NCBI GenBank assembly: GCA_032718475.1
Contig: JAUCBJ010009152.1
Coordinates: forward strand, 8,542 to 72,541
Length of the DNA stretch: 64,000 nt
Reading direction: 5' to 3'
Origin: Nemertoderma westbladi
Lineage: Eukaryota > Animalia > Xenacoelomorpha
A model generated the notes under the pieces. The model was given only the letters and a program-made list of their open reading frames with translations. It did not search any database and was not told where the DNA came from. Position 1 is the stretch's first letter; each line of letters begins with the position of its first letter. Below are positions 1 through 62,489 of the stretch, piece by piece. The position numbers and the translations under genes were made by a program.

Positions 1-1432
1 CTCCATTTGACGCAACACCGCCGCGGCCGCTATGAGGGAGGTGAATACCGCGGCCGCTCCTAAAGCCGCAGGCCCTCGCTAACTATATAGGTTAACTTGG
101 GATTCTGGGGGACTTTTCGATGAAGGAACTGACCAAATTTTTTTATTTTCTCACCAGGGGAGCGGCTCGGAATTCTAAGATATTAGCAACTCTAACATTA
201 TGAAATATGACCCTTCGACGACACGGCGGACAAAAAACCGTCATTTTTTCGACAATTTTAAAATTTTTTTGAAAGGCGCTCTACAGTGGCTCGAAAAAAC
301 CCTAGGTTATTGCTTAGCCGACGCCGGGATACGATAGAAGGGATTAATTAGTGAATTCGTTTTTTTTTTCAAAAAAGATTACCACGCCTTTTTTCCGAAA
401 ATGTCCGTCAAAGTTGGAAAAACGGATAAAATTACTTTGCGGGATCGGCTATAACTCGGCTAATATTAATCGTACGGGGACGAAAGTAACGCGGTTGGAA
501 AGGGGAAGAGTGGTACTACCTTCGTATCGAATGGGGGTAAGATATTTATTAAAATTTCGGGTGGAAAAAGGGGCTGTAAATTTGTACGTTTTTGTCCGTC
601 TTTTTTGGAAAACTTATTTCTGAAATGTTTAATTCGACAACGCGGGTAGGAATCCACTAATTCTTTTATGAAACTCGTAGAAGACCATTGGGGCTACGTT
701 CCTATCGAATGGGGGTACAAAAAATATGTCGGCAATAGGGGCCAAAAAGGGCCAGAATTTGTAAAGTAGTTTTTATCGAATAATTTTTTATTTTTAACTT
801 TAGTTGGTTAAGGTACATTCTATACAGTCAATATCCATACGGGGAATTCAAATATGCTATCGGTTTTGCTCCAAGGATGATATTAAAAAAATGAGGGCCA
901 AAATTATAATTTTGCGCTTCAAACTTGCTTCGCGGGAAATCGTCTAGCTCGAAAACTACTTAACTTAAGGGGGATTTGTTTACACAGACTTATAGTGCGT
1001 TAAATTATCTATCTAACAGCGTTAATCACAGCGCTGGAGGTATTATAAAACTGGAGCGGCAGGCGATCGTGTGAAATATAATATTTATAAAAAGGGACGA
1101 AAAATTTTTTTTTTAACAAATCGCTATTCCATTATAATTTAGCGTATTGCGCCAAAAGTACCTGTAAAAAGTATCAAATTAACTCCGCTATCTTTTATCT
1201 TAACATATATAATTAAAATTACGAATTTTAAGGGTCGAAAAATATCGCGTTATTTTGGCCCTATTTTTTAATTTTTTTGGGGCCAAAAATAACCCCTTCT
1301 CAAAAGATTAAGAAAAAAATTACGGCAAAGAATATACCAATTTTATTGAATTTGGACCACCAGAACCGAAGTTAGAGCGATTTTAGTGAAAAAATAAAAA
1401 TAATTTTTTTTGCAAAAAAATTAAGAATGGTC

Positions 1433-1506
1433 AGGTCAATATTGGATTTCGAACCCGCGAACTTAGGTTTCATTAACGTGATTGATAACCACTAGACTAT
1501 GTGACC
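1433..1506 (-). pseudogene. tRNA-derived (tRNA-like) sequence in 3-kb unit
   Basis: Minus strand GGTCACATAGTCTAGTGG...GCGGGTTCGAAATCC AATATTGACC: A-box, B-box and a partial GGTCA/TGACC acceptor stem, 74 nt. The anticodon arm does not pair. Confidence 0.6.
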
Positions 1507-2361
1507 AAGAGAATTTGAAATTTTCGAGTGACTATTTTTAAACATAAATAACTTCGGTTCTACAGGGCCGTTTAATCTGAAACTTTTTTCATTGGATAGA
1601 GGATAGATTGTAGTGTGTGAAATAGGATACAACTTGGGAAAAGACTTATGTGCACTTAGTGCAAAATGCACTTAAATAGTGAACATTTTTTCGATATTTC
1701 AAACACTATTATTTCCAGTTCTATTCATCGTAGAATGTTATTTTTTGGATTAAAATGTAGTTTGGAATGATTTCTAACTATAATCGTAACATTTGTTTAA
1801 CTTTTTATGTCTATAAAGTGACTTAAAATGTCCATGAATATGGTCCAAAATCGCAAATCCAGATTTATTAAATTGGATTTTTGACACTTTTAGCGACTGA
1901 CACTTGATCATACACCATCGTAGATCGGTAGAGGATAAACATAAGTTTGTTAAATAAGAGCCACCATTACGATCTGCTAAAGTGCATTTGTACAAATAAG
2001 TGTGCAAAAGTGCAAATTTTTTAATAAGGTCAAATTATATAGTATTGGGTTATTTTCTTTGCAGATACTTTATTTTCATATTAATATGTTGTTTGAACCT
2101 TACTGAGCGCATTAGGGGATATGCGTACAAATAACCGGCCCTTATGAGGCTTCGATTGGGTAAATTAATAAAACATAAGGTTGTATAGTATAATATTCTA
2201 AAAACCAGTGTGATATTAAATGCACTTTAAATAATAAATAGAAATCAAATAACAATTGGACCACACAATTAAAAACTCGCACAATTTTGTACTTATTATA
2301 TCGCTTCAAATTAATTCAACAGTGGATATTTGGGGGAAGGGGGAAGTTACAGTGTGCATTC

Positions 2362-2410
2362 GGGGGAAGTTTGGTGAACTGCATTTATGCAGTGAATCCA
2401 AACTTCCCCC
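2362..2410. other. Strong stem-loop in each 3-kb unit
   Basis: GGGGGAAGTTTGG...CCAAACTTCCCCC (13-bp perfect arms) encloses an inner ACTGCAT-TT-ATGCAGT hairpin. Conserved in every unit in the window. Confidence 0.8.
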
Positions 2411-4447
2411 TTTGATATATCATATACTTAAGACATGCTAGGGTGACGGGGAAATATTTGTTACTGTCACACTTTGCTTCCATTTATCCTATCCTTTATT
2501 ATTACCCCAGTCAGATAAGAGATAATAAATCAGTAAAAACTAAACTAAACTGTCTTTCATGCAAACAAATTTCTAACTAAAGACGGGTGAATGACCATGA
2601 CCATGGAAATAATTTTAAATATAATTGTATATCAACTATTTGGGGAGGCTTCCAAGTTAAACCCGAAAACAATTATTTTGTTACATAGTAAATAACGTTG
2701 TATGTTCTTCTTCCTCTCATAATAAAATATAAATGAAATATCTCAGATCGCTATGCCCTGTAACATTTCACAACCAAAATATTTAAGTGTGAAAAGTGTA
2801 GGCCTACCACACTCCGCCCAAACAACCGCAAACGCATAGCCAACAAATTTAACAAAAGGTTACATACATGTTGGGTTCATGACGAGATGAGTGAAAATTG
2901 ATCGCGTAATATAAAGTAAAAAATTAAGAGACGGGCTGGCTCTCCTCCACTTTCTTACCCAATGGATATGTTGTTGTAATAATCTAATTTTGGAGCGGCT
3001 TTCTCTCGGTGGGATAAATATTTCTCCATTTGACGCAACACCGCCGCGGTCGCTATGAGGGAGGTGAATACCGCGGCCGCTCCTAAAGCCGCAGGCCATC
3101 GCTAACTATATAGGTTAACTTGGGATTCTGGGGGACTTTTCGATGAAGGAATTGACCAATTTTTTTTATTTTCGCACCAGGGGAGCGGCTCGGAATTCTA
3201 AGATATTAGCAACTCTAACATTAGCAAATCTATCCCCTCGACGGACACGGCGGACAAAAAACCGTCATTTTTTCGACTTTTTTAAAAAATTTTTGAAAGG
3301 CGCTCTACAGTGGCTCGAAAAAACCCTAGGTTATTGCTTAGCCGACGCCGGGATACGATAGAAGGGATTAATTAGTGAATTCGATTTTTTTTTCAAAAAA
3401 GATTACCACGCCTTTTTCCCGAAATTGTCCGTCAAAGTTGAAAAAACGGACAAAATGGCTTTGCGGGATCCACTCTAACTCGGCTAATATTAATCGTACG
3501 GGGACGAAAGTAACGCGGCTGGAAAGGGGAAGAGTGGTACTACCTTTGTATCGAATGGGGGTAAGATATTTATTAATATTTCGGGTGTAAAAAGGGGCCG
3601 TAACTTTGTCCGTTTTTTCCATATTTTTTACATAATTAATATTTCCAAAATTTTTAATTCGACAACGCTAGTAGGAATCTGCCAATTCTTTTTCGGAAAG
3701 CGTAGAAGACCACAGGGGCTACATTCCTATCGAATGGGGGTACAAAAAATATGTAGGCAAAGGGGTCCAAAAAGGGCCAGAAAATAATAAAAAGTTTATA
3801 ACTATAACAACTTTTTTATTTTAGACTCTAGAAGGTTAAAGTACATTTTATACGGTTAATATCGATACGGGGAATCCAAATATTCGATTGGTTTTGCCGC
3901 GCAAACGATATTAAAAAAATGAGGGCCCAAATTAAAATTTCACGCTTCAAACTCGCTTCGCGGGAACTCGTCTAGCTCGAAAAATACATAAGGTCTGGGA
4001 GACTTATTTAAACAGTCTTATAGAGCGTCAAATTATCTATCTTTCAACGGTAGTTACAACGCCATAGCTATTATATAACTGGAGCGGCAGACGATCGTGT
4101 GAAATATACTACTTATAAAAAAGGGACGAAAAAATTTTTTTTTAATAAATCGCCATTACATTATAATTTAACTTTTTGCGACAAAAGTTCCTGTAAAATG
4201 TAGCAAATTAACTCCACTATCTTTTTTCTTAACATTAATAATTAAAATAACGAGTTTTAAGGGTCGAAAAATATCGTGTAATTTTGGCCCTTTTTTTTCA
4301 TTTTTTTTGGGGCCAAAAGTACCCCCTCTCAAAAGATAGAAAAAAAAAATTACGGCAAAGAATATACCAATTTTATTGAATTTGGAGCACCAGAACCGAA
4401 GTTAGAGCGAATTTAGTCAAAAATTAAAAATATTTTTAAATTAAGAA

Positions 4448-4521
4448 TGGTCAATATTGGGTTTCGAACCCACGAACTTAGGTATCGTTAACGTGATTGA
4501 TAACCACTAGACTACGTGACC
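4448..4521 (-). pseudogene. tRNA-derived (tRNA-like) sequence in 3-kb unit
   Basis: Minus strand GGTCACGTAGTCTAGTGGTTATCAATCACGTTAACGATACCTAAGTTCGTGGGTTCGAAACCCAATATTGACCA: A-box TAGTCTAGTGG, B-box GGTTCGAAACC, T-arm TGGG/CCCA. Confidence 0.62.
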
Positions 4522-7461
4522 AAGAGAATTCGAAATTTTCGAGTGATTATTTTTAAACATCAATAACTTCTGTTCTACAGGACCGTTTGATCTGAAACTT
4601 TTTTCATTGGATAGAGGATAGATTGTAGTGTGTGAAATAGGATACAACTTGGGAAAAGACGCATGTGCACTTAGTGCATAATGCACTTAAAAAGTACACA
4701 TTTTTTCGATATTTTAAACACTGTTATTTCCAGTTCTATTCATCGTAGAATGTTATTTTTTGGATTAAAATGTAGTTTGGAATGATTTCTAACTATAATC
4801 GTAACATTTGTTTAACTTTTTATGTCTATAAAGTGACTTAAAATGTCCATGAATATGGTCCATAATCGCAAATCCAGATTTATTAAATTGGATTTCTGAC
4901 ACTTTTAGCGACTGACACTTGATCATACACCATCGTAGATCGGTAGAGGATAAACATAAGTTTGTTAAATAAGAGCCACCATTACGATCTGCTAAAGTGC
5001 ATTTGTACAAATAAGTGTGCAAAAGTGCAAATTTTTTAATAAGGTCAAATTATATAGTATTGGGTTATTTTCTTTGCAGATACTTTATTTTCATATTAAT
5101 ATATTGTTTGGACCTTACTGAGCGCATTAGGGATAAGTGTACAAATAACCGGCCCTTATGAGTCTTCGATTGGGTAAATTAATAAAACATAAGGTTGTAT
5201 AGTATAATATTCTAAAAACCAGTGTGATATTAAATGCACTTTAAATAATAAATAGAAATCAAATAACAATTGGACCACACAATTAAAAACTCGCACAATT
5301 TTGTACTTATTATATCGCTTCAAATTAATTCAACAGTGGATATTTGGGGGAAGGGGGAAGTTACAGTGTGCATTCGGGGGAAGTTTGGTGAACTGCATTT
5401 ATGCAGTGAATCCAAACTTCCCCCTTTGAGATATCATATACTTAAGACATGCTAGGGTGACGGGGAAATATTTGTTACTGTCACAGTTTGCTTCCATTTA
5501 TCCTATCCTTTATTATTACCCCAGTCAGATAAGAGATAATAAATCAGTAAAAACTAAACTAAACTGTCTTTCATGCAAACAAATTTCTAACTAAAGACGG
5601 GTGAATGACCATGACCATGGAAATAATTTTAAATATAATTGTATATCAACTATTTGGGGAGGCTTCCAAGTTAAACCCGAAAACAATTATTTTGTTACAT
5701 AGTAAATAACGTTGTATGTTCTTCTTCCTCTCATAATAAAATATAAATGAAATATCTCAGATCGCTATGCCCTGTAACATTTCACAACCAAAATATTTAA
5801 GTGTGAAAAGTGTAGGCCTACCACACTCCGCCCAAACAACCGCAAACGCATAGCCAACAAATTTAACAAAAGGTTACATACATGTTGGGTTCATGACGAG
5901 ATGAGTGAAAATTGATCGCGTAATATAAAGTAAAAAATTAAGAGACGGGCTGGCTCTCCTCCACTTTCTTACCCAATGGATATGTTGTTGTAATAATCTA
6001 ATTTTGGAGCGGCTTTCTCTCGGTGGGATAAATATTTCTCCATTTGACGCAACACCGCCGCGGTCGCTATGAGGGAGGTGAATACCGCGGCCGCTCCTAA
6101 AGCCGCAGGCCATCGCTAACTATATAGGTTAACTTGGGATTCTGGGGGACTTTTCGATGAAGGAATTGACCAATTTTTTTTATTTTCGCACCAGGGGAGC
6201 GGCTCGGAATTCTAAGATATTAGCAACTCTAACATTAGCAAATCTATCCCCTCGACGGACACGGCGGACAAAAAACCGTCATTTTTTCGACTTTTTTAAA
6301 AATTTTTTGAAAGGCGCTCTACAGTGGCTCGAAAAAACCCTAGGTTATTGCTTAGCCGACGCCGGGATACGATAGAAGGGATTAATTAGTGAATTCGATT
6401 TTTTTTTCAAAAAAGATTACCACGCCTTTTTCCCGAAATTGTCCGTCAAAGTTGAAAAAACGGACAAAATGGCTTTGCGGGATCCACTCTAACTCGGCTA
6501 ATATTAATCGTACGGGGACGAAAGTAACGCGGCTGGAAAGGGGAAGAGTGGTACTACCTTTGTATCGAATGGGGGTAAGATATTTATTAATATTTCGGGT
6601 GTAAAAAGGGGCCGTAACTTTGTCCGTTTTTTCCATATTTTTTACATAATTAATATTTCCAAAATTTTTAATTCGACAACGCTAGTAGGAATCTGCCAAT
6701 TCTTTTTCGGAAAGCGTAGAAGACCACAGGGGCTACATTCCTATCGAATGGGGGTACAAAAAATATGTAGGCAAAGGGGTCCAAAAAGGGCCAGAAAATA
6801 ATAAAAAGTTTATAACTATAACAACTTTTTTATTTTAGACTCTAGAAGGTTAAAGTACATTTTATACGGTTAATATCGATACGGGGAATCCAAATATTCG
6901 ATTGGTTTTGCCGCGCAAACGATATTAAAAAAATGAGGGCCCAAATTAAAATTTCACGCTTCAAACTCGCTTCGCGGGAACTCGTCTAGCTCGAAAAATA
7001 CATAAGGTCTGGGAGACTTATTTAAACAGTCTTATAGAGCGTCAAATTATCTATCTTTCAACGGTAGTTACAACGCCATAGCTATTATATAACTGGAGCG
7101 GCAGACGATCGTGTGAAATATACTACTTATAAAAAAGGGACGAAAAAATTTTTTTTTAATAAATCGCCATTACATTATAATTTAACTTTTTGCGACAAAA
7201 GTTCCTGTAAAATGTAGCAAATTAACTCCACTATCTTTTTTCTTAACATTAATAATTAAAATAACGAGTTTTAAGGGTCGAAAAATATCGTGTAATTTTG
7301 GCCCTTTTTTTTCATTTTTTTTGGGGCCAAAAGTACCCCCTCTCAAAAGATAGAAAAAAAAAATTACGGCAAAGAATATACCAATTTTATTGAATTTGGA
7401 GCACCAGAACCGAAGTTAGAGCGAATTTAGTCAAAAATTAAAAATATTTTTAAATTAAGAA

Positions 7462-8777: not shown

Positions 8778-8877
8778 NNNNNNNNNNNNNNNNNNNNNNN
8801 NNNNNNNNNNNNNNNNNNNNNNNNNNNNNNNNNNNNNNNNNNNNNNNNNNNNNNNNNNNNNNNNNNNNNNNNNNNNN
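8778..8877. other. Assembly gap (100 N)
   Basis: Run of exactly 100 N; the repeat phase is discontinuous across it. Confidence 0.99.
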
Positions 8878-20275: not shown

Positions 20276-20467
20276 CTAGTTCTAACTGCTGTATGATGGA
20301 CTCCATATAGGAGTACTGATTCTAACTACTGTATGATAGACTCCATATAGGAGTACTGGTTCTAACTGCTGTATGATGGACTCCATATAGGAGTACTGAT
20401 TCTAACTGCTGTATGATAGACTCCATATAGGAGTACTGGCTCTAACTTCTGATTGATGGACTCCATA
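20276..20467. repeat. ~4.7 monomers of the 40-bp satellite; ends in the left TSD (TCCATA, 20462-20467)
   Basis: Same 40-bp monomer as the main array. Confidence 0.97.
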
Positions 20468-20806
20468 AGTAGTAGGGTCTTGGGCGGCTCTGTGACAGTT
20501 AGACCTCACTGACACCCATTGGGTGTCATATGACACCCAATTATCACCCCATGGGTGTCATTGGGTGTCATTGGCGCCAGACTGTCTGGGTGACACCTCC
20601 CAATTAGGCTAATTAGACCCTAATTGACAGGTGTCATCAATTAATTAGTACAATTAAACCCTAACAGGTATCATTTAGGGTTTAATTGATTATCCTAATT
20701 AATCAGACTGATTAGCGCCCTGACACACAATGGGTCATCAGTGATGTCTAACTGTCACAGAGCCGGCTCAAGAGGGTGTCATAAGTGACACCGCAGCTCT
20801 TTTATT
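20468..20806 (+). repeat. Left terminal inverted repeat (339-bp core)
   Basis: Reverse complement of 29148-29486 with one visible mismatch (CAGGTATCA vs CAGGTGTCA). Degenerate similarity continues inward. Confidence 0.95.
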
Positions 20807-21233
20807 CATTAATACTTATTTATATTTAATTTTAATTAATTATTTGCATTTTATTTTATATTCGTATTTATTCATTTGTACTTTATTTTATATTAATTAT
20901 TCATTTATACTTTATGGGTATACAGCTCCCTTACTGGTAACTAATTACTCTTATCTATATCCAGACAGCTTTTTCGTTGACCTTTGACCTTTGACCCCTC
21001 AATTAGCTTTAACCAAGCAACAGCATATTAATGATAGTTGTATCCAAGCGCCCCTGCCCCCCACCCCGTGACAGCTCTGATTACTAATTACTCTTACATA
21101 TATCCAACCGCCTGCAGTTCCATAGTCTGCCGCTAGAGGGCGTATTATCTGAAAATTAACATCTTCTCTAACTTTGTTATTTTTCAATTTAACTATTTAT
21201 ATATCCAGGCAGCCCCTATCATAACAACCAGGG

Positions 21234-21285
21234 ACCGGCAGGACACATGGAAACGATTTTATTACTATGAAATACATTGAAATAT
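21234..21285 (-). pseudogene. Short duplicated fragment of the TBP-like gene 3' end
   Basis: CCGGCAGGACACATGGAAACGATTTTATTACTATGAAATACATTGAAATAT closely matches ~22343-22393 and encodes YFNVFHSNKIVSMCPAG. Confidence 0.8.
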
Positions 21286-21774
21286 ATTCTCACATTAACT
21301 CCCAAGGTTGCATACTATCACTATAGCTGGGAGAGTCAAAGCTAGAGTGTATGCTAGAGTTATCCAAGAGCTAGGAAAAAGAATAATGCTCTTCTAGGGT
21401 CCAAACTCACATCCATCCAATTAGAGAACTAAGCAAATGACCAGCTTGAAGGCCTTAGACCCTTAATCTGAGGCATCGAGCAGCCAATGAGAGAGCAGAT
21501 GTGAGTACAGTGGTAAAGCCCACCCATGGTGAGATAACGTCACACTAACTCTCAAGGATAGTTATACTCACCGTTCAAATATCCCTCGCAAACCAGTTTC
21601 CCCCCAACATCTAAAGTAATCCACTTCAATGTAAAATATATAATGCAATATAACTCGAATATTTCTGTTTTTATAATATAAATAATAATTGTAACATAAA
21701 TTTATAATTTAACACAAATATAAGGTGAAAATTCACTTTAACATAGAGTAACTAAACTAAACATAAAATAGGAT

Positions 21775-22230
21775 AAAAACAGATGGTCATACTGTAGGCT
21801 CAATCCCTACTCGTGTCCGTTTTATGAAAAATATAAAAAGTAAACATAGAATAACTAGAGTACCTAAACTAAACACAAAATAGGAAAAACAGAAGGTCAC
21901 GGGCTCAATCCCTACTCGTATCCCGTTTTATGGAAAATAAACAGGAGGTCATAGGTTCAATCCCTACTCGCGACCATTATAAATCCAACACGAAATAAGT
22001 TAAACCAGGGTTCGAATCCTAATCATGAAAATATAAAAAGTAAACATAGAATAACTAGAGTAACTAAACTAGACATAAATTAGGAAAAACAGAAGGTCAG
22101 GGGTTCAATCCCTACTCGCGACCATTATAAAACCAACACAAAATAAGTTAAACCAGGGTTCGAGTCCTACTAATGCAATTATAAAAAGTAGGTAACACGG
22201 ATGGTCACGGATTCAAACCCTACTCACGGA
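21775..22230 (+). repeat. Cluster of seven tRNA T-arm/B-box-like motifs in degenerate direct repeats
   Basis: GTAGGCTCAATCCCTAC, GGGCTCAATCCC, ATAGGTTCAATCCCTACTCGCGACCA, GGGTTCGAATCCT, GGGGTTCAATCCCTACTCGCGACCA, GGGTTCGAGTCCT and GGATTCAAACCC, compared with the B-box consensus GGTTCRANTCC. Confidence 0.7.
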
Positions 22231-22293
22231 AAAATAAAAACCAACACAAAATAAATAATATAGTAAACTTTCATGTATACCATAGTAAATAAT

Positions 22294-22809
22294 CTAATTT
22301 AATAATAAAGTTTGTAAAATAGATAATGATTCGGGGAATTCACCGGCTGGACACATGGAAACGATTTTATTACTATGAAATACACTGAAATATGCACGTC
22401 CTATATATATTCTAATCGCGCAAAATAATTCGGGGGTATAGCTAATAAATATTGCTTTATTATTAATTGTATGATGTCCACATTTTTTCATTAATAATTT
22501 AAAATTAACACTTGGAAAAATAATAGTTTGTGTTTCGGTATTAAGTTTCAAATTTTGTAATTGCATACCAATAGTTTGTTTTAAATAAAGCAATTCACTA
22601 GCTAAATTATTGCAAAGGCCTACAATTGTTACTGCGCCGCTGGGAAATAGCATTATAGTTGAATCGTCACCTTTGTAGATAAACATGTTTGGTTTTAAGC
22701 AACTTTGACCTGTAGTTTGCTGTGAAATTTTCTCTAGTTCAAATTTGGCAATGTTTTTTCCGGTAAACTGTTTATTGGTTATTTCTATTTTGTAGCTCAA
22801 TTTCTTATT
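22294..22809 (-). CDS. Divergent TATA-binding protein (TBP)-like protein; no ATG at the 5' end, probably a spliced 3' exon
   Basis: ~170 aa with two TBP-like repeats. STIMLFPSGAVTIVG resembles TBP TTALIFSSGKMVCTG, and SYTPELFCAIRIY...FSVFHSNKIV resembles SYEPELFPGLIYR...LLIFVSGKVV. The ORF-track start is a TTG, preceded by the acceptor-like TTTAATTTTTCTAG (AG at 22811-22810). Confidence 0.72.
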   Translation of the reverse strand, partial: NKKLSYKIEITNKQFTGKNIAKFELEKISQQTTGQSCLKPNMFIYKGDDSTIMLFPSGAVTIVGLCNNLASELLYLKQTIGMQLQNLKLNTETQTIIFPSVNFKLLMKKCGHHTINNKAIFISYTPELFCAIRIYIGRAYFSVFHSNKIVSMCPAGEFPESLSILQTLLLN

Positions 22810-22823
22810 CTAGAAAAATTAAA

Positions 22824-25800
22824 TTAAATCCTAGTAGGGGGGATTACTACTCGTTTCGCCGGTCTAACAAGCTTAGTGCTATAGTGCCCGTATGGTTTGC
22901 TGCTATATTTACTACTCCAATATGATTTCGTATCCCAGAGCGTTAGTGCCTTCTTATAGACATGACCAGTAAAAATTTGATGCTTACTAGAAGTGAAGGT
23001 AGAGTTATAGCGGAAGAGCATTGCCTCGTTTACAAAACAGTCTGCATAATCCTCGTGTGTTAGTTGCTTAGCGACAACCGATCTAGATACACCTTTGGCG
23101 GTTTTCTTGATTGGGGCATCATAGGATTGAAAACTGTAGACCTTTGGTTTAAGGAAAACCCACTGTTTATACTGCAAACCGCAGCTCTCATCTTTTATGA
23201 AGCCGAGAGCCGCTTTGTGTTTAATGGTATAGAGTGGATGTGTTGTACTGTAGTTGGAAGTATCTAGGAAACCACCCTCAAACATTGCCCGTAGAAAGGT
23301 TAGCTGTGGTGTATTAGTTACGCTTAGCATTAGAGAATCCGTGTCACCGGCTAGACAGCGAATCTGGCAACCCAGTTTTTGTTCTAGAGGCTTCAGTTTG
23401 TTGTAAAATAGGTCGTACATCTGTAGCTTAGATAGATCTAGTATAGTGCAACCGATGAACACGCCCTGATTTAGGCAAACAGCCTCTTTAGTGAAAGTAT
23501 GACCACTCAAGTTGGGGGTAAATACAACAAACGATTCGTGATTGGGCTTGGCTAAGAGCAAATCGCATTGTTCGTCGCTATTGCATAACCTGAAAGAAAC
23601 GCGGTCTCTAACCTTTTGGAGGCATTTCCCATACAAGGCATTGTTCATCAACTTATAAAATAGGACCTCGAATGGGTTATTTGCCGACTGTCTTTTATTG
23701 GTATTAAAACTAATGTAGTCCTTGAAAATATATTTTTGTGAGAAAGAGTAGACCCTATGTACTTGTGTAAGTTTAAGACCGAGCTTCAAATAGAGTTGAA
23801 GTAGCTTAATATGGATACCGTATTCAACCTTATTAAACTGATGTAGTAGTAGCTTAGTACAGGTATCGTTGTATGGTCTACAGGTGGCCGTATCGGTGAG
23901 ATTGTAATGCTCCCAAAGATCTTCCATGTATTCGCTAAGAAAGGATTTAGGGACTGACATCTTCTCCGCTCCTAGAGGCAGATCGGCGGTCAAATCATGA
24001 ATTTCTTTCGGGTAATGTAGATCAACTATGCAATAATAACCAGTATCCCCACTCGCGTCTACTGTAGCTAGGTCTATGGGGGTAGTTACGAGTTTAATAT
24101 TAGCGTAGGGAAGTTTCTGGCTCAGGGCGCAGCCGTAAAGGTTATTCGCATCGATGGGAATTAGATATTTCTCGGGGAGACTGGAGTCATAGTCGGGTTT
24201 ATCGGGAATATTTGCGTCTACGGAATGTGTATTCAAGAATACTAGACCACCCCTAATATTTGTTTCAAAGTCCGAGTAGATGGAAGCGTCTGATAGTAAT
24301 TGAATTTCTGATTGCGTGAATTTCAGCGCCGCGTCGTAAGTTAATCCAGGGGCAGTGAAGTACATTACGGGCTCGAGTCCATAATTAGTAAGACAGAGGG
24401 ATCGGAACTGCTCGAAAGTATCAGCCAATAGGGTAACATCTAGAACCAAATAGCCAATCATATAGTCAAAGATTGTTGCGCAGTTTAATTCATCCCAAGT
24501 AGTAAGCGCGCGCTGATAGTTTTCTGCGCTACATTGTTCCAATTTGAGATCATTATAGAAGCTTTCTAATGGGGGGAGTGTAGTTTCGTGTAGGTTTGAA
24601 ATATTTTGAATGTAGGAATATGGGAATACACCCTTGTTTTTTATTGTGTTATCGCTAATGTTGGGATAGAGTTGGGTCATTTGAGCTAGTGTATGGGGTA
24701 TGGCTGTTGCTAGGTTACTGTTATTTTTAGTGAGATAACTACTAAGATTATCTAGGCTGGCAGTCATAAACTGATAGGAATCTAGAAAATTAATGGAGAT
24801 ACTTTCTTTAGCGTTGGCTGTTGGTGTACTCGGATCGATTGGGAAGCTAACTTTAAGGTGAATATAAGTTTCGGTGTTTTTTGGTATTACGGTCATTTTC
24901 CAGTGTGTTCTAGAACTATCGGTCATTCCTTCTTTTAGTAGTAAATGCATATCGAATTTCCTCAGGTTATGAAATATAATATAAAAATTATTCCGTTTTA
25001 GGGAAAGTTTCCTGTTGCAGCTGACGCAAGCAGCCCCCCGATACTCCCCGCTATAATGATCGTGATCGCGGACTTTGGTGCTGAGATTGTCATTGAGGTT
25101 TAAATTATGAGAATCGGGGGTTAAATTACAGTTGCAGACGTAGCATTGTGTAGCGTTATTAAAGTCAGTTTGTTGGCTAGTAGTGAGTTGCATGGGGGCG
25201 TGCGTGTTTGTACTAGAAATGGACCAATCGTATAACTCCCTACAATGACTTTCCATAGCGGTTAGAAAGTCGCGCATTACGTGGTTACTGCCATCGTCGC
25301 GGAAAATTTGAACATCTGTTTTAGGAGGGTTAATTAATTTCTGATTTGGTACTGTATAAAAGGCTGCCGCGCTAGCTATATGTTTCTGTGGGAGTTTAAT
25401 ATTGTTTGTAGGTTCTAGAATAGTTTCAATGTCGGCGTATATACAGAAAGGTGGGGATAGAGTCTTATCGTACCTATCAAATTTAACCAAGAGATTTTCG
25501 GGCATATACTCGAGTTGGCGTTTACCCGTATAGCACCGCTCTCGATGTTCTTCCAATGATTTGTCAGTGTAAAAGGCTCTGAGACAGCGTTCGCAGTGCG
25601 TCTTGTTGCCTTTAGAAGTAGCTTTAGTATTTATTAATCTATCTATGTTAGTAATAGCTACGTAGTGGGCGGGGTTTTTGCTTGTGGCTTCGATAAATAA
25701 TAAGTTTAGTACAGTTTTACCGGAACAGTGCGCGCTATCTGGTTGACTTAGGATGGAGAGTTCTTCCGTATTACTCCAATAAAGAAGGTTTATGCAGTAT

Positions 25801-26879
25801 ATAGGGTTGGCTTTCAGAAACTGGGGAATACCAGTTACTCTGTCCACCGGAAAACTTAAATTCGAAAAATCAAACATGTTTAGGAAAGGAGTATAGGTTG
25901 AAATTCTTTTGATATTATTTTGTTTTCTATCAATTTTCTTATAATTTGCGGCGGCCAAAACTGCGTATTTAAAGCATTCCCCCAGCGGGCAGTCTACGCT
26001 TACGGTACATTTTTTATTTAATAATAATTTAGAATTATTGAACCCTTGACCCTTTAAATAGGGGTTGCGTTGGGACCGCACAATCTCAATAGTTATTCGC
26101 TCGATGGCTATTATGCGCCAACCCGAGCCGAGACAGAGAAACACGCTTAACAGTTGATCGATACGATTGACGGCGCCAGAAAACCAGTTATTAAAGTCGC
26201 TATTATTCAGAATTTGATTATTGTTACCGCTAGATTTAAAACAGAATGATTCAATTTGAAATCCCTCGCTGGTTTCACGCTCCATTACGATGTTGATTGT
26301 AAGCCAGACTCTTAAAAAAGTTCCCATGGCACTACGTAAATGGCTACTAACGTGTTCGTGAATGTGTGGAAAATTTTCATTTAATGTTAATTCTGCGTCG
26401 AGTCTTGTTTCTGTGAGGTCGTTGTTATAGGTAAACAGTCGTCCGTGTGCGCTTCCGTTAGAGGGTGGTTGAAATGGATTGTTTGGGGAAATAGAATCTC
26501 GCGAAGTTGAAGGTTCGTTATTGGAGCCGCCGCCGCCGACTTGTTCTGGAGTAGAGTTGATGGGGGATGAGTGTGAGGTAGTCGGAGTTTTGCGTTTCCG
26601 CGAAAAAAGTCGAGTATAGCATTCATGCTCAGTAAAGGAAGATAGGGTGAGCGAATCCCCGCAGCGGCAATCGGCTGGCTCGTTTACGTAACTAAATCCT
26701 GTTCCCCCCTGAGGACACGAAACAAGATGGCCAACCAGCGTCTTCTTTTCCGAAGACCAAGTCGGACAGCAGTCGCATCTATATTGCGCGAAATGAGTTT
26801 TAATATGACGAGATAAATTATCACTCCGCGTCTCTTTGTTGCAGATGGGGCAGCTAACTTTATTGCTAGACATAGGCAT
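22824..26879 (-). CDS. polB: Protein-primed family B DNA polymerase (Polinton/adintovirus type), 1351 aa, intact
   Basis: ExoI YADIE, ExoII FHNLRKFD, KGVFPY, ExoIII YLVLDV, IRGG, motif A DANNLYG, motif B KLMNNALYGK, motif C GDTDS and KVY. It also has an endonuclease VII-like HNH insert (CYVC...RDHDH...GAACVSCN), a TP-like region ending GSGW, vOTU-like CFKYAV...HYV and N-terminal zinc fingers. Confidence 0.96.
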   Translation of the reverse strand: MPMSSNKVSCPICNKETRSDNLSRHIKTHFAQYRCDCCPTWSSEKKTLVGHLVSCPQGGTGFSYVNEPADCRCGDSLTLSSFTEHECYTRLFSRKRKTPTTSHSSPINSTPEQVGGGGSNNEPSTSRDSISPNNPFQPPSNGSAHGRLFTYNNDLTETRLDAELTLNENFPHIHEHVSSHLRSAMGTFLRVWLTINIVMERETSEGFQIESFCFKSSGNNNQILNNSDFNNWFSGAVNRIDQLLSVFLCLGSGWRIIAIERITIEIVRSQRNPYLKGQGFNNSKLLLNKKCTVSVDCPLGECFKYAVLAAANYKKIDRKQNNIKRISTYTPFLNMFDFSNLSFPVDRVTGIPQFLKANPIYCINLLYWSNTEELSILSQPDSAHCSGKTVLNLLFIEATSKNPAHYVAITNIDRLINTKATSKGNKTHCERCLRAFYTDKSLEEHRERCYTGKRQLEYMPENLLVKFDRYDKTLSPPFCIYADIETILEPTNNIKLPQKHIASAAAFYTVPNQKLINPPKTDVQIFRDDGSNHVMRDFLTAMESHCRELYDWSISSTNTHAPMQLTTSQQTDFNNATQCYVCNCNLTPDSHNLNLNDNLSTKVRDHDHYSGEYRGAACVSCNRKLSLKRNNFYIIFHNLRKFDMHLLLKEGMTDSSRTHWKMTVIPKNTETYIHLKVSFPIDPSTPTANAKESISINFLDSYQFMTASLDNLSSYLTKNNSNLATAIPHTLAQMTQLYPNISDNTIKNKGVFPYSYIQNISNLHETTLPPLESFYNDLKLEQCSAENYQRALTTWDELNCATIFDYMIGYLVLDVTLLADTFEQFRSLCLTNYGLEPVMYFTAPGLTYDAALKFTQSEIQLLSDASIYSDFETNIRGGLVFLNTHSVDANIPDKPDYDSSLPEKYLIPIDANNLYGCALSQKLPYANIKLVTTPIDLATVDASGDTGYYCIVDLHYPKEIHDLTADLPLGAEKMSVPKSFLSEYMEDLWEHYNLTDTATCRPYNDTCTKLLLHQFNKVEYGIHIKLLQLYLKLGLKLTQVHRVYSFSQKYIFKDYISFNTNKRQSANNPFEVLFYKLMNNALYGKCLQKVRDRVSFRLCNSDEQCDLLLAKPNHESFVVFTPNLSGHTFTKEAVCLNQGVFIGCTILDLSKLQMYDLFYNKLKPLEQKLGCQIRCLAGDTDSLMLSVTNTPQLTFLRAMFEGGFLDTSNYSTTHPLYTIKHKAALGFIKDESCGLQYKQWVFLKPKVYSFQSYDAPIKKTAKGVSRSVVAKQLTHEDYADCFVNEAMLFRYNSTFTSSKHQIFTGHVYKKALTLWDTKSYWSSKYSSKPYGHYSTKLVRPAKRVVIPPTRI

Positions 26880-27400
26880 CTTGAATCTAGAAAAATAAGT
26901 TGATTATTCATAAAAAAATAAAAAATACTGTATACTTGCTAAAAATAAGGTAAAACAGTAGGTATTAATCGGTTACTAGGCAACAATACTGTGTTTGTAC
27001 AGTTAGGCCTATTGCTGTATTGTAGCATTCAGGCAGTGAAACATAAAGCAGACAGTCAGCAGTGTCTAGTGTAGTAGTGTTAGTGTACCAGCGGTCAGAT
27101 AGTGGCGATAACCAAGACACAATAGCGATGGCAGTTATTATTCGTGGAAAGAGGGTCTATAAACAGCAGTCAGTCAGTGCAGTAGTGCTAGTGAAATAGT
27201 CTGCCAGAAGTCAGACGTACCGGTAGCGTTAACCAATAGAAATCAACGATAGGCTTAGCTAATCGCTGTGTGAGAACTCAGTTAGTCAGTAGGATATATA
27301 ATGAAAACTGCAGTATTCAGTGTTGTTCAGTAGGGTCTATATCGCTACTATGATGGCATTAGGCTAACTCGAATGATCCGGTAGCGCTAGTTGGGTAGAC

Positions 27401-28212
27401 AAGCAGATAGACAGATGTAGGCCTATTGATCGAATGCTTCGATCACGGTTTAGGCTATCGGTACCACCACAGTCTGACAGTAATTAATAATGAGCCTACT
27501 GCAATACTGTTGTACCGGTAGACATTAAATGTAAATTGTTTGCTAGCGGCATCGATAGTACAGTCAGATGGTGGAAGGGAAGGCAGATTTTACTTACGGT
27601 GTTAGTAAATATTCACGGAAAGAAGAAGTTTGGAAGTTTGTTGGCGATGAGGAAGTTGGTTGACGTGGACGACGAGAGAGTTTATTAACCGATAGAACGG
27701 AATGGTATCGGAAATTAGAAATAATGGAATATTACGCGACGAATACGCGGAAAGTTTGTTGTCGACAATGAGCGTTAACGCGGCGAAATTACACTAGAAA
27801 AATAAGTTGATTATTTGTAAAAAGATAAAAAATACAGTAAGCAGATAGGCGGATGTAAGCCTATTGATCGAATGCTTCGATCACGGTTTAGGCTATCGGT
27901 ACCACCGCAGTCTGACAGTAATTAATAATGAGCTTACTGCAATACTGTTGTACCGGTAGACATTAAATGTAAATTGTTTGCTAGCGGCATCGATAGTACC
28001 GTCAGATGGTGTAAGGCAGATTTTACTTACGGTGTTAGTAAATATTCACGGAAAGAAGAAGTTTGGAAGTTTGTTGGCGATGAGGAAGTTGGTTGACGTG
28101 GACGACGAGAGAGTTTATTTACCGATAGAAGGGAATGGTATCGGAAGAATATTACGCGACGGATACACGGAAAGTTTGTTGTCGACGATGAATGATAACG
28201 CGGCGAAATGAC
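27401..28212 (-). repeat. ~390-bp direct repeat pair (27401-27792 and 27839-28212) containing putative non-coding leader exons
   Basis: Near-identical copies. On the minus strand each has a donor ACC|GTAAGT (28030 and 27597). The acceptor AACTTATTTTTCTAG occurs at 27794 and again at 26887, 7 nt before the polB ATG. Confidence 0.75.
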
Positions 28213-28259
28213 AATAATACAACTCTACAAGTGGGTTGTTGATCGATGATAACAAATAA

Positions 28260-28460
28260 ATATTCTTAAATAAATAATATTAAATTCGAAAACAAAATAA
28301 TGGTAAATGATGTTAATCGTAACTTGCAATTGAAATAATGACCTAATATATTAGTGGGGATGTATTAAATAGCAATTCGGTTAGTAGGGGAGGCCCTTGT
28401 CTCTTAAATGAGCCAATCAGAGCGCAGCAGCAGAAATGACGCCCGCTGATTGGCTGTTCG
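28260..28460 (-). promoter_or_regulatory. Putative Pol II promoter of the element (paired CCAAT boxes, AT-rich TATA-like region)
   Basis: AGCCAATCAG (28411-28420) and its exact inverse CTGATTGGCT (28446-28455) flank TGACG. TATTTAAG lies on the minus strand at ~28265-28272, just upstream of the putative leader exon. Confidence 0.5.
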
Positions 28461-29147
28461 CGCAAAAGCGGTTACCAGGGCAACTTCTCGTGTTGATTCT
28501 ATATTAGAAAACTCTTGTAAGCATCTTGACTAATTATGTTGAGTTGGTTGTATAACAGAAGCAGGTCTGGTGCAAAGGAAAGGGATTAGTAGAGAGGAAT
28601 GCGTGATTAGTGGCGCTTCATTGTTATGATAGGGGCTGCCTGGATATAGGAAAGGGACAAAGCGACGCCGGCTATAGTGGGAACAATGGAGGGCCGCTTG
28701 AGCATTAGCCTTGGGCGATATACGGATTTGTTGTAGTCAAGGCCGCCTGGCGCCATTGAATAATGAAGACAAAGGGGCTGCTAACAGACGGGACCGCTCA
28801 TTTATATTTGCCTTGGGGGTATACGTGTAGATTCACTGCCTGTTGTATCTAGTTAATGAATAATGAGGACAGAGGAGGGGCCCCCCGCCGATGAACGCAG
28901 TTGATAGTTGCCAGTAGGGAGCCGTATACCATAGCCATTATAAAGTTAAAAATAGATATTATGTCATAGTGATCTCGTTGGTAATATAAAAACTAATTAA
29001 TCTAAAAATAGAAATCAATGTATAAAGTTTATACAATTAATTAATTTAAAATAAAGTACAAATGAATAATTAATTTAAAATTAAATACAAATAAAATAAA
29101 ATACAAATAATTAATTAAAATTAAATATAAATAAATAGGTATTAATA

Positions 29148-29486
29148 AATAAAAGAGCTGCGGTGTCACTTATGACACCCTCTTGAGCCGGCTCTGTGAC
29201 AGTTAGACATCACTGATGACCCATTGTGTGTCAGGGCGCTAATCAGTCTGATTAATTAGGATAATCAATTAAACCCTAAATGACACCTGTTAGGGTTTAA
29301 TTGTACTAATTAATTGATGACACCTGTCAATTAGGGTCTAATTAGCCTAATTGGGAGGTGTCACCCAGACAGTCTGGCGCCAATGACACCCAATGACACC
29401 CATGGGGTGATAATTGGGTGTCATATGACACCCAATGGGTGTCAGTGAGGTCTAACTGTCACAGAGCCGCCCAAGACCCTACTACT
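29148..29486 (-). repeat. Right terminal inverted repeat (339-bp core)
   Basis: Reverse complement of 20468-20806; ends CCCTACTACT, followed by the TSD TCCATA. Confidence 0.95.
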
Positions 29487-32400
29487 TCCATATAGGAGTA
29501 CTGGTTCTAACTGATGTATGATGGACTCCATATAGGAGTACTGGTTCTAACTTCTGTATGATGGACTCCATATAGGAGTACTGGTTCTAACTTCTGATTG
29601 ATGGACTCCATATAGGAGTACTGGTTCTAACTGCTGTATGATGGACTCCATATAGGAGTACTGGTTCTAACTTCTGTATTGATGGAATCCATATAGGAGT
29701 ACTGGTTCTAACTTCTGATTGATGGACTCCATAAAGGAGTACTGGTTCTAACTTCTGATTGATGGACACAATATAGGAGTACTGGTCCTATATAGGTGTA
29801 CTGATTCTAACTGCTGTATGGTGGACTCCATATAGAAGTACTGGATCTGACTGCTGTATGATGGACTCCATATAGGAGTACTGGTTCTATCTGCTGTATG
29901 ATGGACTCCATATAGGAAGGAGTACTGGTTCTAACTGCTGTATGATGGACTCCATATAGGAGTACTGGTTCTAACTTATGACTGATGGACTGACTCCATA
30001 TAGGAGTACTGGTTCTAACTTCTGATTGATGGACTCCATATAGGAGTACTGGTTCTAACTGATGTATGATGGACTCCATATAGGAGTACTGGTTCTAACT
30101 GCTGTATGATGGAATCCATATAGGAATACTGGTTCCTGGTTCTATCTGCTGATTGATGCTCCATATAGGAGTACTGGTTCTAACTGCTGTATGATGGACT
30201 CCATATAGGAGTACTGGTTCTAACAGCTGTATGATGGACTCCATATAGGAGTACTGGTTCTAACTGCTGTATGATGGACTCCATATAGGAGTACTGGTTC
30301 TAACTGCTGTATGATGGACTCCATATTGGAGTACTGGTTCTAACTTCTGATTCTGATTGATGGACTCCATATAGGAGTACTGGTTCTAACTGCTGTATGA
30401 TGGACTCCATATAGGAGTACTGGTTCTAACTGCTGTATGATGGACTCCATATAGGAGTACTGGTTCTAACTGCTGATTGATGGACTCCATATAGGAGTAC
30501 TGGTTCTAACTGCTGATTGATGGACTCCATAAAGGAGTACTGGTTCTAACTGCTGATTGAGGAGTACTGGTTCTAATTACTGTATGATGGACTCCATAAA
30601 GGAGTACTGGTTCTAACTTCTGATTGATAGACTCCATATAGGAGTACTGGTTCTCACTGCTGATTGATGAACTCCATATAGGAGTACTGATTCTAACTGC
30701 TGTATGATGGACTCCATATAGGAGTACTGGTTCTAACTGCTGTATGATGGACTCCATATAGGAGTACTGGTTCTAACTGCTGCATGATGGACTCCATATA
30801 GAAGTACTGGTTCTAACTGCTGTATGATGGACTCCATATAGGAGTACTGATTCTAACTGCTGTATGATGGACTCCATATATGAGTTCTAACTGCTGTATG
30901 ATGGACTCCATATAGGAGTACTGGTTCTAACTTTTGTATGATGGACTCCATGTAGGAGTACTGATTCTAACTGCTGTATGATGGACTCCATATAGGAGTA
31001 CTGGTTCTAACTTCTGATTGATGGACTCCATATAGGAGTACTGGTTCTAACTTCTGATTGATGGACTCCATATAGGAGTACTGGTTCTAACTGCTGTATG
31101 ATGGACTCCATATAGGAGTACTGGTTCTAACTGCTGTATGATGGACTCCATATAGGAGTACTGGTTCTAACTGCTGTATGATGGAATCCATATAGGAGTA
31201 CTGGTTCCTGGTTCTATCTTCTGATTGATGCTCCATATAGGAGTACTGGTTCTAACTGCTGTATGATGGACTCCATATAGGAGTACTGGTTCTAACTGCT
31301 GTATGATGGACTCCATATTGGAGTACTGGTTCTAACTTCTGATTCTAATTGATGGACTCCATATAGGAGTACTGGTTCTAACTGCTGTATGATGGACTCC
31401 ATATAGGAGTACTGGTTCTAACTGCTGTATGATGGACTCCATATAGGAGTGGACTCCATATAGGAGTACTGGTTCTAACTTCTGATTGATGGACTCCATA
31501 AAGGAGTACTGGTTCTAACTGCTGATTGAGGAGTACTGGTTCTAACTACTGTATGATAGACTCCATAAAGGAGTACTGGTTCTAACTTCTGATTGATGGA
31601 GTACTGGTTCTAACTGCTGATTGATGAACTCCATATAGGAGTACTGATTCTAACTGCTGTATGATGGACTCCATATAGGAGTACTGGTTCTAACTGCTGT
31701 ATGATGGACTCCATATAGGAGTACTGATTCTAACTGCTGTTTGATGGACTCCATATAGGAGTACTGGTTCTAACTGCTGTATGATGGACTCCATATAGGA
31801 GTACTGGTTCTAACTGCTGTATGATGGACTCCATATAGGAGTACTGGTTCTAACTTCTGATTGATGGACTCCATAAAGGAGTACTAGTTCTAACTTCTGA
31901 TTGATGGACTCCATATAGGAGTACTGGTTCTAACTGCTGTATGATGGACTCCATATAGGAGTACTGGTTCTAACTTCTGATTGATGGAATCCATATAGGA
32001 GTACTGGTTCTAACTTATGATTGATGGATTCCATAAAGGAGTACTGGTTCTAACTTCTGATTGATGGACTCCATATAGGAGTACTGGTCCTATATAGGTG
32101 TACTGATTCTAACTGCTGTATGATGGTCTCCATATAGAAGTACTGGTTCTGACTGCTGTATGATGGACTCCATATTGGAGTACTGGTTCTATCTGCTGTA
32201 TGATGGACTCCATATAGGAAGGAGTACTGGTTCTAACTGCTGTATGATGGACTCCATATAGGAGTACTGGTTCTAACTTATGATTGATGGACTGACTCCA
32301 TATAGGAGTACTGGTTCTAACTTCTGATTGATAGACTCCATATAGGAGTACTGGTTCTAACTGCTGTATGATGGACTCCATATAGGAGTACTGGTTCTAA

Positions 32401-61640: not shown

Positions 61641-62489
61641 TTTTTTTTTTTTTTACTCAAAAGCCTCCATATATTATAATATTAACAAACAATAATTCGA
61701 ATATAAAAACGCACCAAAACAAGTACAAATATAACCCACCACCAGCTGATTCAAACTGTTACCTAGCAACAATACAAACAATACAAATTGGTTCAGTACC
61801 CATCACCAGTCTGCCACTCTGCCACTGCCAGTACCCAACAAACCCGCCAGACCTCTAACTTCTAAGCCGTCCTGGGGTCCGAGTCCGCGTTTGCCCACAC
61901 AATGGACGCGTCCGCCACTGCTGCCCGCACCGGTCTTCTAGCAGCCGACCGAAACCCACGGAGGCACATCAGGGACGACCGGAGTAAGGCGAAGTTGATG
62001 CGTCGCCGCACCCACGCTACCGACTCCGGGTAGGGAACCCGTCGTTTCTCCGACAGCCTCAATGCCAGCCGCTTCACAAACTGCTTCGCAGCCGGCGCCA
62101 TGCCCCCGAAAGCGGAAAATATGAGGGGGGTGAAGGTTGAGTGCTCAACCTCACGGATCCGCTCCTCGTATCTCCGGATCTTCCTCGCCTCGTGATGGAG
62201 GTGGGCGGCATCCAGCGACATCGCTGCGTTGGTGTCCGCCAGCGGGTTGAACACCGACACGTCGATAAACATCTTCTGGAAGCGGTTGCCCCAGAATCTG
62301 CTTACCGACACGTCGAGTCTCGCCTGCTGGTCCGTCGAGGTGGACCGGAGAGTGAAGGACTCCCCCGTCAGCGGCTGGAGCATCGGCTCGACAGCCACGT
62401 TGTGGGCCACCTCAGTCAGGGAGTCGGCGACGAAATCGCGGATCTTGTTGTGTCTGATTGAGGGGAACCCCCCAGTGGGACACGACAGA
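61641..62489 (-). mobile_element. 5'-truncated CRE-clade non-LTR retrotransposon with poly(A) tail and 12-14-bp TSD
   Basis: Poly-T on + at 61639-61654. ACTGGTTCTATCTT is duplicated at 61627-61640 and 62490-62503. The interior is GC-rich and coding. Confidence 0.88.
61862..62488 (-). pseudogene. C-terminal restriction-like (PD-(D/E)xK) endonuclease domain of a CRE-type ORF, 5'-truncated but uninterrupted
   Basis: LSCPTGG...RHNKIRD...EP...RLDV...FWG...FIDVSVF...HEARKIRRY...FTPLIFSAFGGM...CLRG. The apparent N-terminus MESFIQKIEPV is translated satellite. Confidence 0.85.

Follow-up and report, generated by a model that had tools for sequence, protein, structure and literature searches.

Element structure and terminal repeats

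The window (the whole 64,000-nucleotide stretch of Nemertoderma westbladi DNA that was analysed) contains an element of 9019 bp at positions 20468-29486, about half of it non-coding. The element is shorter than autonomous Polintons (13-25 kb). An intact gene for a protein-primed family B polymerase (pPolB) and a TBP-like gene lie between terminal inverted repeats (TIRs) rich in hairpins. Features are given by window position and strand.

20462-20467 (+): left copy of the target-site duplication, TCCATA, inside a 40-bp satellite unit
20468-20806 (+): left TIR, 339 nt
20807-20915 (+): A+T-rich degenerate extension of the left TIR
20916-22293 (no strand): left non-coding arm, no gene remnants
~21108-21182: left arm, piece in common with another repeat family
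21234-21285: left arm, 52-nt stretch duplicated from the TBP-like gene
21954-22167: left arm, short repeats with four B-box-like motifs
22294-22809 (-): TBP-like gene, open from 22809, homology from ~22788, first AUG at 22686 (130 aa)
22810-22823 (-): pyrimidine-rich motif resembling a splice acceptor, immediately before the TBP-like frame
22824-26879 (-): pPolB, intact frame of 1351 aa
26880-29021 (no strand): right non-coding arm, upstream of pPolB, no gene remnants
27401-27796 and 27839-28216: right arm, duplication of ~430 nt
28411-28485: right arm, promoter-like motif cluster
29022-29486 (-): right TIR with A+T-rich extension (TIR proper 29148-29486)
29487-29492 (+): right copy of the target-site duplication, TCCATA

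The near-perfect TIRs and clean 6-bp duplication reported in an earlier sequence-only reading were both confirmed. The TIRs (20468-20806 and 29148-29486) were identical at 338/339 positions, with a single mismatch at position 203; with gaps allowed, the inverted repeat extended to ~20915/29022 at 94%. TCCATA was present on both sides and kept the phase of the 40-bp satellite unit, which marks it as a true duplication and no by-product of the array. Both lengths fall within the Polinton/Maverick ranges (TIRs of 100-1500 bp, duplications of 5-8 bp). AG...CT termini are what the Polinton integrase leaves.

The computed DNA fold of the left TIR had ~10 unpaired terminal bases followed by a branched hairpin of nested palindromes (-111.6 kcal/mol, z = -20.8). 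When a single script was applied to all, z was -15 for the window and -5 and -2 for two TIR-bearing relatives. Candidate flip/flop isomers of the hairpin in contigs of public runs were indistinguishable from assembly artefacts. The same 40-bp satellite continues for ~30 kb beyond the right duplication.

Protein-primed polymerase

The pPolB domain order, taken from PMC11161782, was C2H2 finger, predicted terminal-protein domain, vOTU, exonuclease with an HNH/EndoVII insertion, and polymerase. PF03175 was matched at E = 2e-18 over part of the model only, and PF02945 and the C2H2 finger were both under their cut-offs. The exonuclease, polymerase, vOTU and HNH-type motifs were all found and agreed with those of relatives, which bears out the earlier description of an intact 1351-aa polymerase. 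The terminal-protein domain was assigned from sequence, by its position and a conserved serine (Ser252). Cys302 and His405 of the vOTU were kept, and the Cys and His residues of the HNH/EndoVII-type domain were intact. The element thus has the polymerase expected of a Polinton, a protein-primed family B enzyme with (predicted) terminal-protein and vOTU domains. It is likely a Beta-class PolB, to judge from class motifs and from the match to PF03175, which is weak and partial.

A pPolB phylogeny, suggested in the sequence-only reading, was built with FastTree and placed the window within a 42-row clade (support 99). The branch was long (1.06) and the best identity was ~41%, so no close relative was on hand. 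Of 19 variant places listed within pPolB, 13 fell on third codon positions (P = 0.002); the 19 came from the 40 of 484 variant rows that were listed and may partly stem from longer elements. Five short MAG contigs matched in a scan of prokaryotic genomes are probably binning passengers, and nothing came from scans of viral contigs, whether the query was the single pPolB or the TBP alignment.

TBP-like gene

Homology in the TBP-like frame starts near 22788, 34 codons ahead of the first AUG, with no AUG at the homologous start. Compared with a full-length TBP-like gene of ~165 aa, the frame is open and homologous and its first AUG lies 34 codons in. The ORF 22294-22686(-) matched Pfam TBP at E = 0.0095, under the cut-off. 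A TBP profile built from relatives picked out the region at 56 bits in the scan that also covered the arms; on the family profile the protein scored 48 bits (E = 5e-17) vs. 123-251 for members and retained 15/23 conserved columns. Single-sequence searches with the 130-aa protein recovered 0/3 candidates and, elsewhere, one repeat-protein match of 31 residues.

In the Atlas, TBP clusters were reached at 0.93 with low recognition. The AlphaFold model had a pLDDT of 80.5, and TBP chains made up 9 of its 10 top Foldseek rows, none of them at E ≤ 0.001; a fold predicted without an alignment (pLDDT 33) was of no use. Of the DNA-contacting residues, all three invariant Phe are retained, as is the first Asn, which is encoded upstream of the first AUG. 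Sequence, predicted fold and these Phe/Asn positions place the protein in the Polinton TBP-like family (PF00352). Given its divergence and the missing AUG at the homologous start, the gene may be decaying. The acceptor-like motif before it recurs just before the pPolB start codon (26887), with a third copy at 27794, and these motifs could be splicing signals.

Missing genes and non-coding arms

No stop-to-stop frame above 98 aa was present within the element beyond pPolB and the TBP-like gene, in agreement with the earlier statement that no other credible ORF exists. Remnants were sought with profiles built from relatives, in all six frames of both arms with stops as X. In neither arm did the score exceed 1.5 bits for integrase, protease, ATPase, major capsid, PLA2, a zinc-finger gene or one unnamed family, a level close to that of shuffled controls; the minor capsid protein was covered by unnamed family profiles only, without a named profile. 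The earlier remark that remnants of the usual genes are missing therefore stood. A retroviral-like integrase was found neither as an ORF nor as a remnant, and the packaging ATPase, maturation protease and the capsid proteins, major as well as minor, of Polintons were likewise not found in the element.

The B-box-like motif of the left arm had 4 matches vs. 0.2 expected, but these were sited in related repeat units. Genes resembling tRNA or VA RNA were rejected for this arm (ARAGORN, 0; Rfam, nothing credible; six folds, about as shuffles).

Related loci

A TBP gene was present in 10/95 related loci, all within the 42-row pPolB clade of the window. Eight of the 10 carried integrase, ATPase, protease or capsid genes, and the other two contigs stopped just past the TBP gene; full-length relatives sharing the gene were L027, L033-L035, L037, L049, L052 and L054. 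Of the 21 loci that had 4 kb or more outside pPolB, 18 carried a recognisable core gene, so members of this group normally have full gene sets. The HNH/EndoVII-type domain was general in its pPolBs, at loci mostly with integrase or other core genes.

The sequence-only reading had suggested that the element could be a satellite or a segment rather than a simple deletion product. The gene set itself stood, and the interpretation was modified: the TBP-like gene belongs to the ordinary accessory genes of this Polinton clade, and the element can therefore well be read as the end of such a Polinton that bears pPolB. pPolB and TBP were kept apart by at least one ORF in 10/10 TBP-bearing relatives and are directly adjacent in the window, so no known gene order yields the element by one deletion.

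Among the TBP-bearing relatives, the five placed closest on the tree had an ATAAAC box within 90 nt upstream of 17/22 virion, packaging and integrase genes (background 6%), vs. 1/17 in the other TBP-bearing clade. Loci of at least 5 kb were searched for a comparable minimal element bounded by TIRs, and TIRs were present only in L005 and L064, the latter full-length. L034 had a weak internal inverted match, and L094, L070 and L046 were without terminal repeats.

Reads and contigs in public sequencing runs

Four public runs of the same organism from three studies (X1-X4) were surveyed; X1 and X2 are one sample, and one run may be the source of the window itself. The runs listed as carrying the element included no RNA run. 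The element had depth in 30/30 bins in X1-X3 and 28/30 in X4. The junction of the TBP gene and left arm was bridged in X3 (record 18) and X4 (record 26), and in ~89%-alike variants in X1 (record 3) and X3 (record 17). The junction of the pPolB start and right arm was bridged by a ~94%-alike contig (X4, record 32), and that of the TIR and left arm by X4 record 25. Two X4 contigs continued beyond the right end into other flanks, unlike each other. Among the contigs listed for X1-X4, none spanned the whole element.

Near-identical contigs in X3 had depths of 1500-2030 vs. 46-56 for diverged variants, depth not being copy number. In X1 and X2 the polymerase core had less depth than the termini and arms; in X3, TIR depth (~2500-2850) was under twice that of pPolB (~1500-2000). 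X4 had no cover in central pPolB (~23674-24675), which by itself proves nothing. The other insertion flanks and the gene-arm junctions in diverged variants point to a multi-copy lineage, and the element has the look of an established lineage, not of a single accident.

A deletion joint, 22816-26046, was present in one contig per study in two studies, X1 (depth 245) and X4 (depth 47), and absent among the contigs listed for X2 and X3. It ends the pPolB frame after residue 278, retains the TBP-like gene and gives a form of ~5.8 kb. Residue 278 adjoins Gly277, an invariant residue at the predicted border of the terminal-protein and vOTU domains; this fit to a domain boundary was noticed post hoc. 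A splice origin was rejected, as the joint was seen in DNA runs and has no splice dinucleotides. The shorter form appears to keep only the part of the polymerase predicted to serve as primer, the terminal protein.

Interpretation

We favour, with modest confidence, a replication-competent, non-autonomous Polinton lineage that is integrated in trans. Integration in trans is the natural inference because integrase and virion genes are gone without remnants, the polymerase is intact and the 6-bp duplication is typical of the Polinton integrase; the earlier proposal that the integrase is borrowed gains support from the same observations. The element probably copies its own excised linear form; the N-terminal terminal-protein domain would prime replication at the TIR ends and be freed by the vOTU. 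A retroviral-type integrase acting in trans would have produced the duplication; this enzyme, plus capsid if the element is ever packaged, would come from a related element with compatible ends, although no such helper was seen. The TBP-like gene was presumably inherited from a TBP-bearing Polinton ancestor, and its product, if still expressed, would work on the late promoters of the helper. The shorter form would rely on the polymerase of the 9-kb form, a nested dependence.

The element might instead be the replication-and-late-switch segment of an obligate bipartite or multipartite Polinton, complemented by a polymerase-less partner with the same ends that holds the integrase and virion genes. 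We regard this as possible but rather unlikely. The pPolB and TBP-like genes are the two that could act in trans on a structural segment, the ATAAAC box lies upstream of most virion, packaging and integrase genes in the nearest relatives while the window has no genes of these kinds, and the TBP-like gene is retained in the shorter form too. The deeper termini and arms in X1 and X2 fit such an arrangement, as do the shared-end segments with pPolB of bidnaviruses and Vesanto virus and the polB-less polinton insertions reported in a butterfly. Set against these, no partner was observed, X3 gave no clear surplus of ends (a weak objection), the TBP-like gene may be degenerate, and the box is lacking in the other TBP-bearing clade. 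A multipartite integrating animal DNA virus is a slightly more tentative proposal still; it would comprise the 9-kb polymerase and late switch, a same-end integrase/capsid segment (unseen) and the ~5.8-kb terminal protein and switch, all with hairpin ends in common. It is improbable that the element is a dead-end deletion product, a Polinton that lost its interior, whose helper is gone or inactive, copied mostly by duplication with satellite DNA and carrying the TBP-like gene as a decaying passenger. The large satellite block around the insertion, the divergence and missing AUG of that gene, and arms with the internal duplications and captured fragments typical of decay are consistent with this, and C. 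elegans strains have pPolB1 with TIRs and no INT at 10 loci reported as remnants (10.1101/2024.01.15.575659). The 338/339 TIRs and clean duplication, the intact 4-kb ORF with third-position bias, the other flanks at the terminus, what looks like the same layout in ~10% diverged variants and the zero remnants of lost genes all speak against it.

Mobility independent of an integrase was also weighed, in which the HNH/EndoVII-type domain of pPolB would make the cut, either at the hairpin TIR or in the target, and repair by the host would finish the insertion. EndoVII-family nucleases cut branched DNA, the Cys and His residues of the domain are intact, and the TIR is an unusually stable branched hairpin. 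However, the domain is common to the pPolBs of a group that mostly has integrase or other core genes, and a clean 6-bp duplication with AG...CT ends is the outcome of a Polinton integrase, which makes this explanation very improbable.

Comparison with known systems

Polintons are regarded as single-piece, and reduced forms such as this escape surveys, which demand polymerase and integrase together. If it is true that a replication-only lineage is stable and has a smaller form cut at the predicted terminal-protein boundary, the functions of Polintons would be shown to complement one another in trans in vivo. The predicted border between terminal protein and vOTU would thereby gain natural support, and the lineage could stand as an intermediate between Polintons and pPolB viruses with segments. 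Should there be a full-length helper, the lineage would be an unusual but unsurprising non-autonomous family.

The element resembles Polintons/Mavericks (adintoviruses) with HNH-containing pPolB2 (PMC8502044; 10.1101/2023.08.22.554363) in its long TIRs, 6-bp duplication and pPolB with terminal-protein, vOTU and HNH domains; it differs in measuring 9 kb rather than 13-25 kb, in lacking integrase, ATPase, protease and capsid, and in the direct adjacency of pPolB and TBP. Non-autonomous or remnant Polintons of the C. elegans strains and of Pieris (polB-less insertions; 10.1101/2025.02.07.637071) likewise combine Polinton ends with a partly missing gene set, whereas the present element has retained its polymerase, both TIRs and the duplication intact, and its layout seems to recur in diverged copies. 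Bidnaviruses and the Drosophila Vesanto virus (PMC8363768; PMC8502044) also encode pPolB on a small segment that ends in inverted terminal repeats. Their other functions lie on further segments with similar ends, whereas a single element was seen here, and descriptions present them as ssDNA viruses rather than as elements that integrate with a 6-bp duplication. The bidnavirus vOTU is inactivated, unlike that of the window (Cys302/His405), which sets the element apart from bidnavirids.

Herpesvirus TBP mimics such as KSHV ORF24 (PMC12529657) are virus-encoded TBP-like proteins for which a role in recognising a non-standard box in late promoters has been proposed. The Polinton protein is small, with a predicted TBP fold of two repeats, and the window copy may be degenerate. 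A separate terminal-protein gene is found in adenoviruses and a coral Polinton (PMC11161782), and the shorter form would have one too, although there the remainder of the polymerase is deleted instead of lying in a neighbouring gene. Fungal linear pPolB plasmids (pGKL type) are also capsid-less linear replicons based on a terminal-protein-pPolB fusion, whereas the window element is integrated in apparent nuclear satellite and encodes no RNA polymerase.

Structure and termini of the element

The insertion spans 20468 to 29486 and is real and well formed. As the sequence-only reading had described, the terminal inverted repeats (TIRs) are near-perfect (338/339 positions identical between the inverted ends), and a clean 6-bp duplication lies on both sides; it is in register with the 40-bp satellite at the insertion site. 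A degenerate A+T-rich stretch lengthens the inverted repeats to about 450-465 nt. About ten bases stay unpaired, and the TIR then forms a single branched hairpin (-111.6 kcal/mol, z = -20.8):

20478-20773 and 29181-29476: branched hairpin of nested palindromes, far stabler than shuffles

Our guesses for its role are a replication origin or an excision substrate. In relatives with TIRs (n = 2) the hairpin was far weaker (z = -5 and -2, vs. -15 for the window with the same script). A perfect 28-nt inverted pair (21200-21227/28621-28648), at a similar distance from either end, is perhaps a relic of longer TIRs.

Gene content

The polymerase, read earlier as intact, proved so: a 1351-aa pPolB on the minus strand with a partial PF03175 match; an EndoVII/HNH-type domain is present, as is a C2H2 finger. 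Residues of the exonuclease, polymerase, vOTU and HNH parts agreed with those of 20 aligned relatives, and the nearest database pPolBs were 37-40% identical. For the 40 variants shown of 484, 19 fell in pPolB, 13 of these at third codon positions (P = 0.002).

The second gene, TBP-like, is also on the minus strand. Its protein model (10-sequence alignment) had a pLDDT of 80.5, and the best Foldseek matches were TBP chains, none reaching E = 0.001. A TBP-family profile search returned 137 members, the best matches mostly about 165-170 aa; the window protein scored 48 bits, vs. 123-251 for the 87 members that built the profile, and retained 15/23 conserved columns. Homology starts 34 codons upstream of the first AUG, therefore the gene would be decaying unless it is spliced or begun at a non-AUG codon. 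Immediately before both genes stands an acceptor-like motif rich in pyrimidines, which makes splicing plausible and hints at splicing or trans-splicing of the element's genes:

22810, 26887 and 27794, minus strand: acceptor-like motif, the third copy within a duplicated stretch from upstream of pPolB

The element held no further frame above 98 aa, and a profile search of both non-coding arms (37 ORF clusters from related loci plus 7 hand-picked profiles) found nothing above shuffled controls, so the earlier claims of no other credible ORF and no remnants of the usual Polinton genes stand; very old remnants could escape, since the source relatives are only 30-40% identical in pPolB. The TBP profile served as a positive control and picked out the TBP region with a score of 56 bits.

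Four plus-strand B-box motifs, similar to a tRNA T arm, lie in short repeats at 21740-22260; these are not tRNAs and could be Pol III elements, boundary elements or SINE debris. A 75-nt piece (21108-21182), common to another dispersed repeat family, had loose ends in 4/4 sequencing runs and contains a CTCF-like motif. Upstream of pPolB (28411-28485 and 26972) are two opposed CCAAT boxes, with E2F-like and RFX-like motifs, resembling cell-cycle promoters.

TBP-bearing relatives

An alignment-based scan yielded 95 related loci, with 80/224 metagenome matches kept. A TBP-family gene was present in ten, seven with an rve integrase and an eighth with capsid and protease; the other two contigs stop just past the TBP gene. 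The pPolB tree (FastTree, 67 rows) comprised the window, loci of at least 5 kb and 24 proteins with coverage of 700 residues or more, with shorter loci and lower-ranked proteins omitted. All ten sat in a 42-row clade containing the window, itself a long branch of unsure exact placement; the TBP-like gene is thus a regular accessory gene in the window's Polinton group. TBP lay directly beside pPolB in 0/10 of these relatives. The element resembles the pPolB end of a TBP-bearing Polinton. Another locus of the group, L094, carries pPolB and two small ORFs (849-6009); no recognisable core gene was found across 11 kb downstream of pPolB, and no TIR.

An ATAAAC late-promoter box occurred within 90 nt upstream of 17/22 virion, packaging and integrase genes in five TBP-bearing relatives (L033, L037, L051, L052, L054), compared with 6% of random windows and only 1/17 such genes in L027, L034, L035 and L049. 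The five fall within the smallest well-supported set containing the window. As the window has no such genes, the usual targets of the TBP-like protein, if it works, would be on another molecule.

Copies in sequencing runs

The element's words were present at 0.30-0.56 in four runs (X1-X4; one organism, three studies), X1 and X2 being a single sample and one of the runs possibly the window's own source. Depth covered 30/30 bins in X1-X3 and 28/30 in X4. Contigs bridged the junctions of TBP gene and left arm, pPolB start and right arm, and TIR and left arm; variants 89-94% alike were among them, so the attachment of the gene-less arms to these genes is old enough for divergence to have set in. 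Past the right end, two X4 contigs ran into other flanks, and no contig in the four runs spanned a whole copy. Depth in X3 (1500-2030 for near-identical contigs, 46-56 for diverged ones) points to free DNA or to copies in the tens, depth itself being no measure of copy number. The TIR/polymerase depth ratio varied by run (<2 in X3, 2-3 in X2, higher in X1), a spread compatible with the presence of a partner element as well as with its absence.

The most surprising result, on one contig per study and a post hoc fit, was a shorter form, in which 22816 is joined to 26046 (depth 245 in X1, 47 in X4; an X4 contig reading through the joint site had depth 19). The vOTU, exonuclease, HNH and polymerase domains are lost, a stop falls directly after pPolB residue 278, and the acceptor-like motif and TBP-like gene are left intact. 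At about 5.8 kb, this form would retain the TBP-like gene and, of pPolB, nothing beyond the predicted terminal-protein part. Gly277 is invariant (16/16 relatives covering the position) and lies between a conserved Gly-Ser-x-Trp loop, whose Ser252 is Ser or Thr in 16/16 relatives, and the vOTU cysteine at 302. According to PMC11161782, the priming residue sits in a loop of this kind, and vOTU cuts between the terminal-protein and vOTU domains. What the shorter form encodes would thus nearly match a mature terminal protein.

Proposed life cycle

As had been proposed, the element is not an autonomous Polinton. Its anatomy, intact motifs, missing genes and recurrence were observed, and it works like the replication module of a Polinton. 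Protein-primed replication would start from the TIRs, the shorter form would rely on the polymerase of the 9-kb form, and another element would supply a retroviral-type integrase for integration. For the donor we lean slightly towards a complete Polinton; a partner element without a polymerase is an unlikelier source. The element may also be a segment of a multipartite system.

Among the matches listed, with subscription literature mostly outside the scope, no pPolB+TBP-only Polinton, bipartite Polinton or terminal-protein-only derivative was described; reduced or TBP-bearing elements may appear in the genome maps that supplement the adintovirus paper. In the available portions of PMC8502044 and its preprint, TBP appears only as a label in a figure legend. 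Comparison extended to parts of 10.1101/2023.08.22.554363, PMC8363768, 10.1101/2025.02.07.637071, 10.1101/2024.01.15.575659 and PMC3014272; the sections available of 10.1101/2022.07.12.499685 and 10.64898/2026.10.13.758929 held nothing relevant.

Remainder of the window

Positions 1-20270 are a tandem repeat (units about 3.0 kb) with no genes or Rfam matches, broken at 8778-8877 by a gap of Ns and also by a block of the 40-bp satellite 16 copies long. One further frame, with no Pfam match, was noted:

61862-62533, minus strand: 223-aa open frame inside a satellite block

This frame is similar to the nuclease region at the C-terminal end of CRE-type non-LTR retrotransposons.
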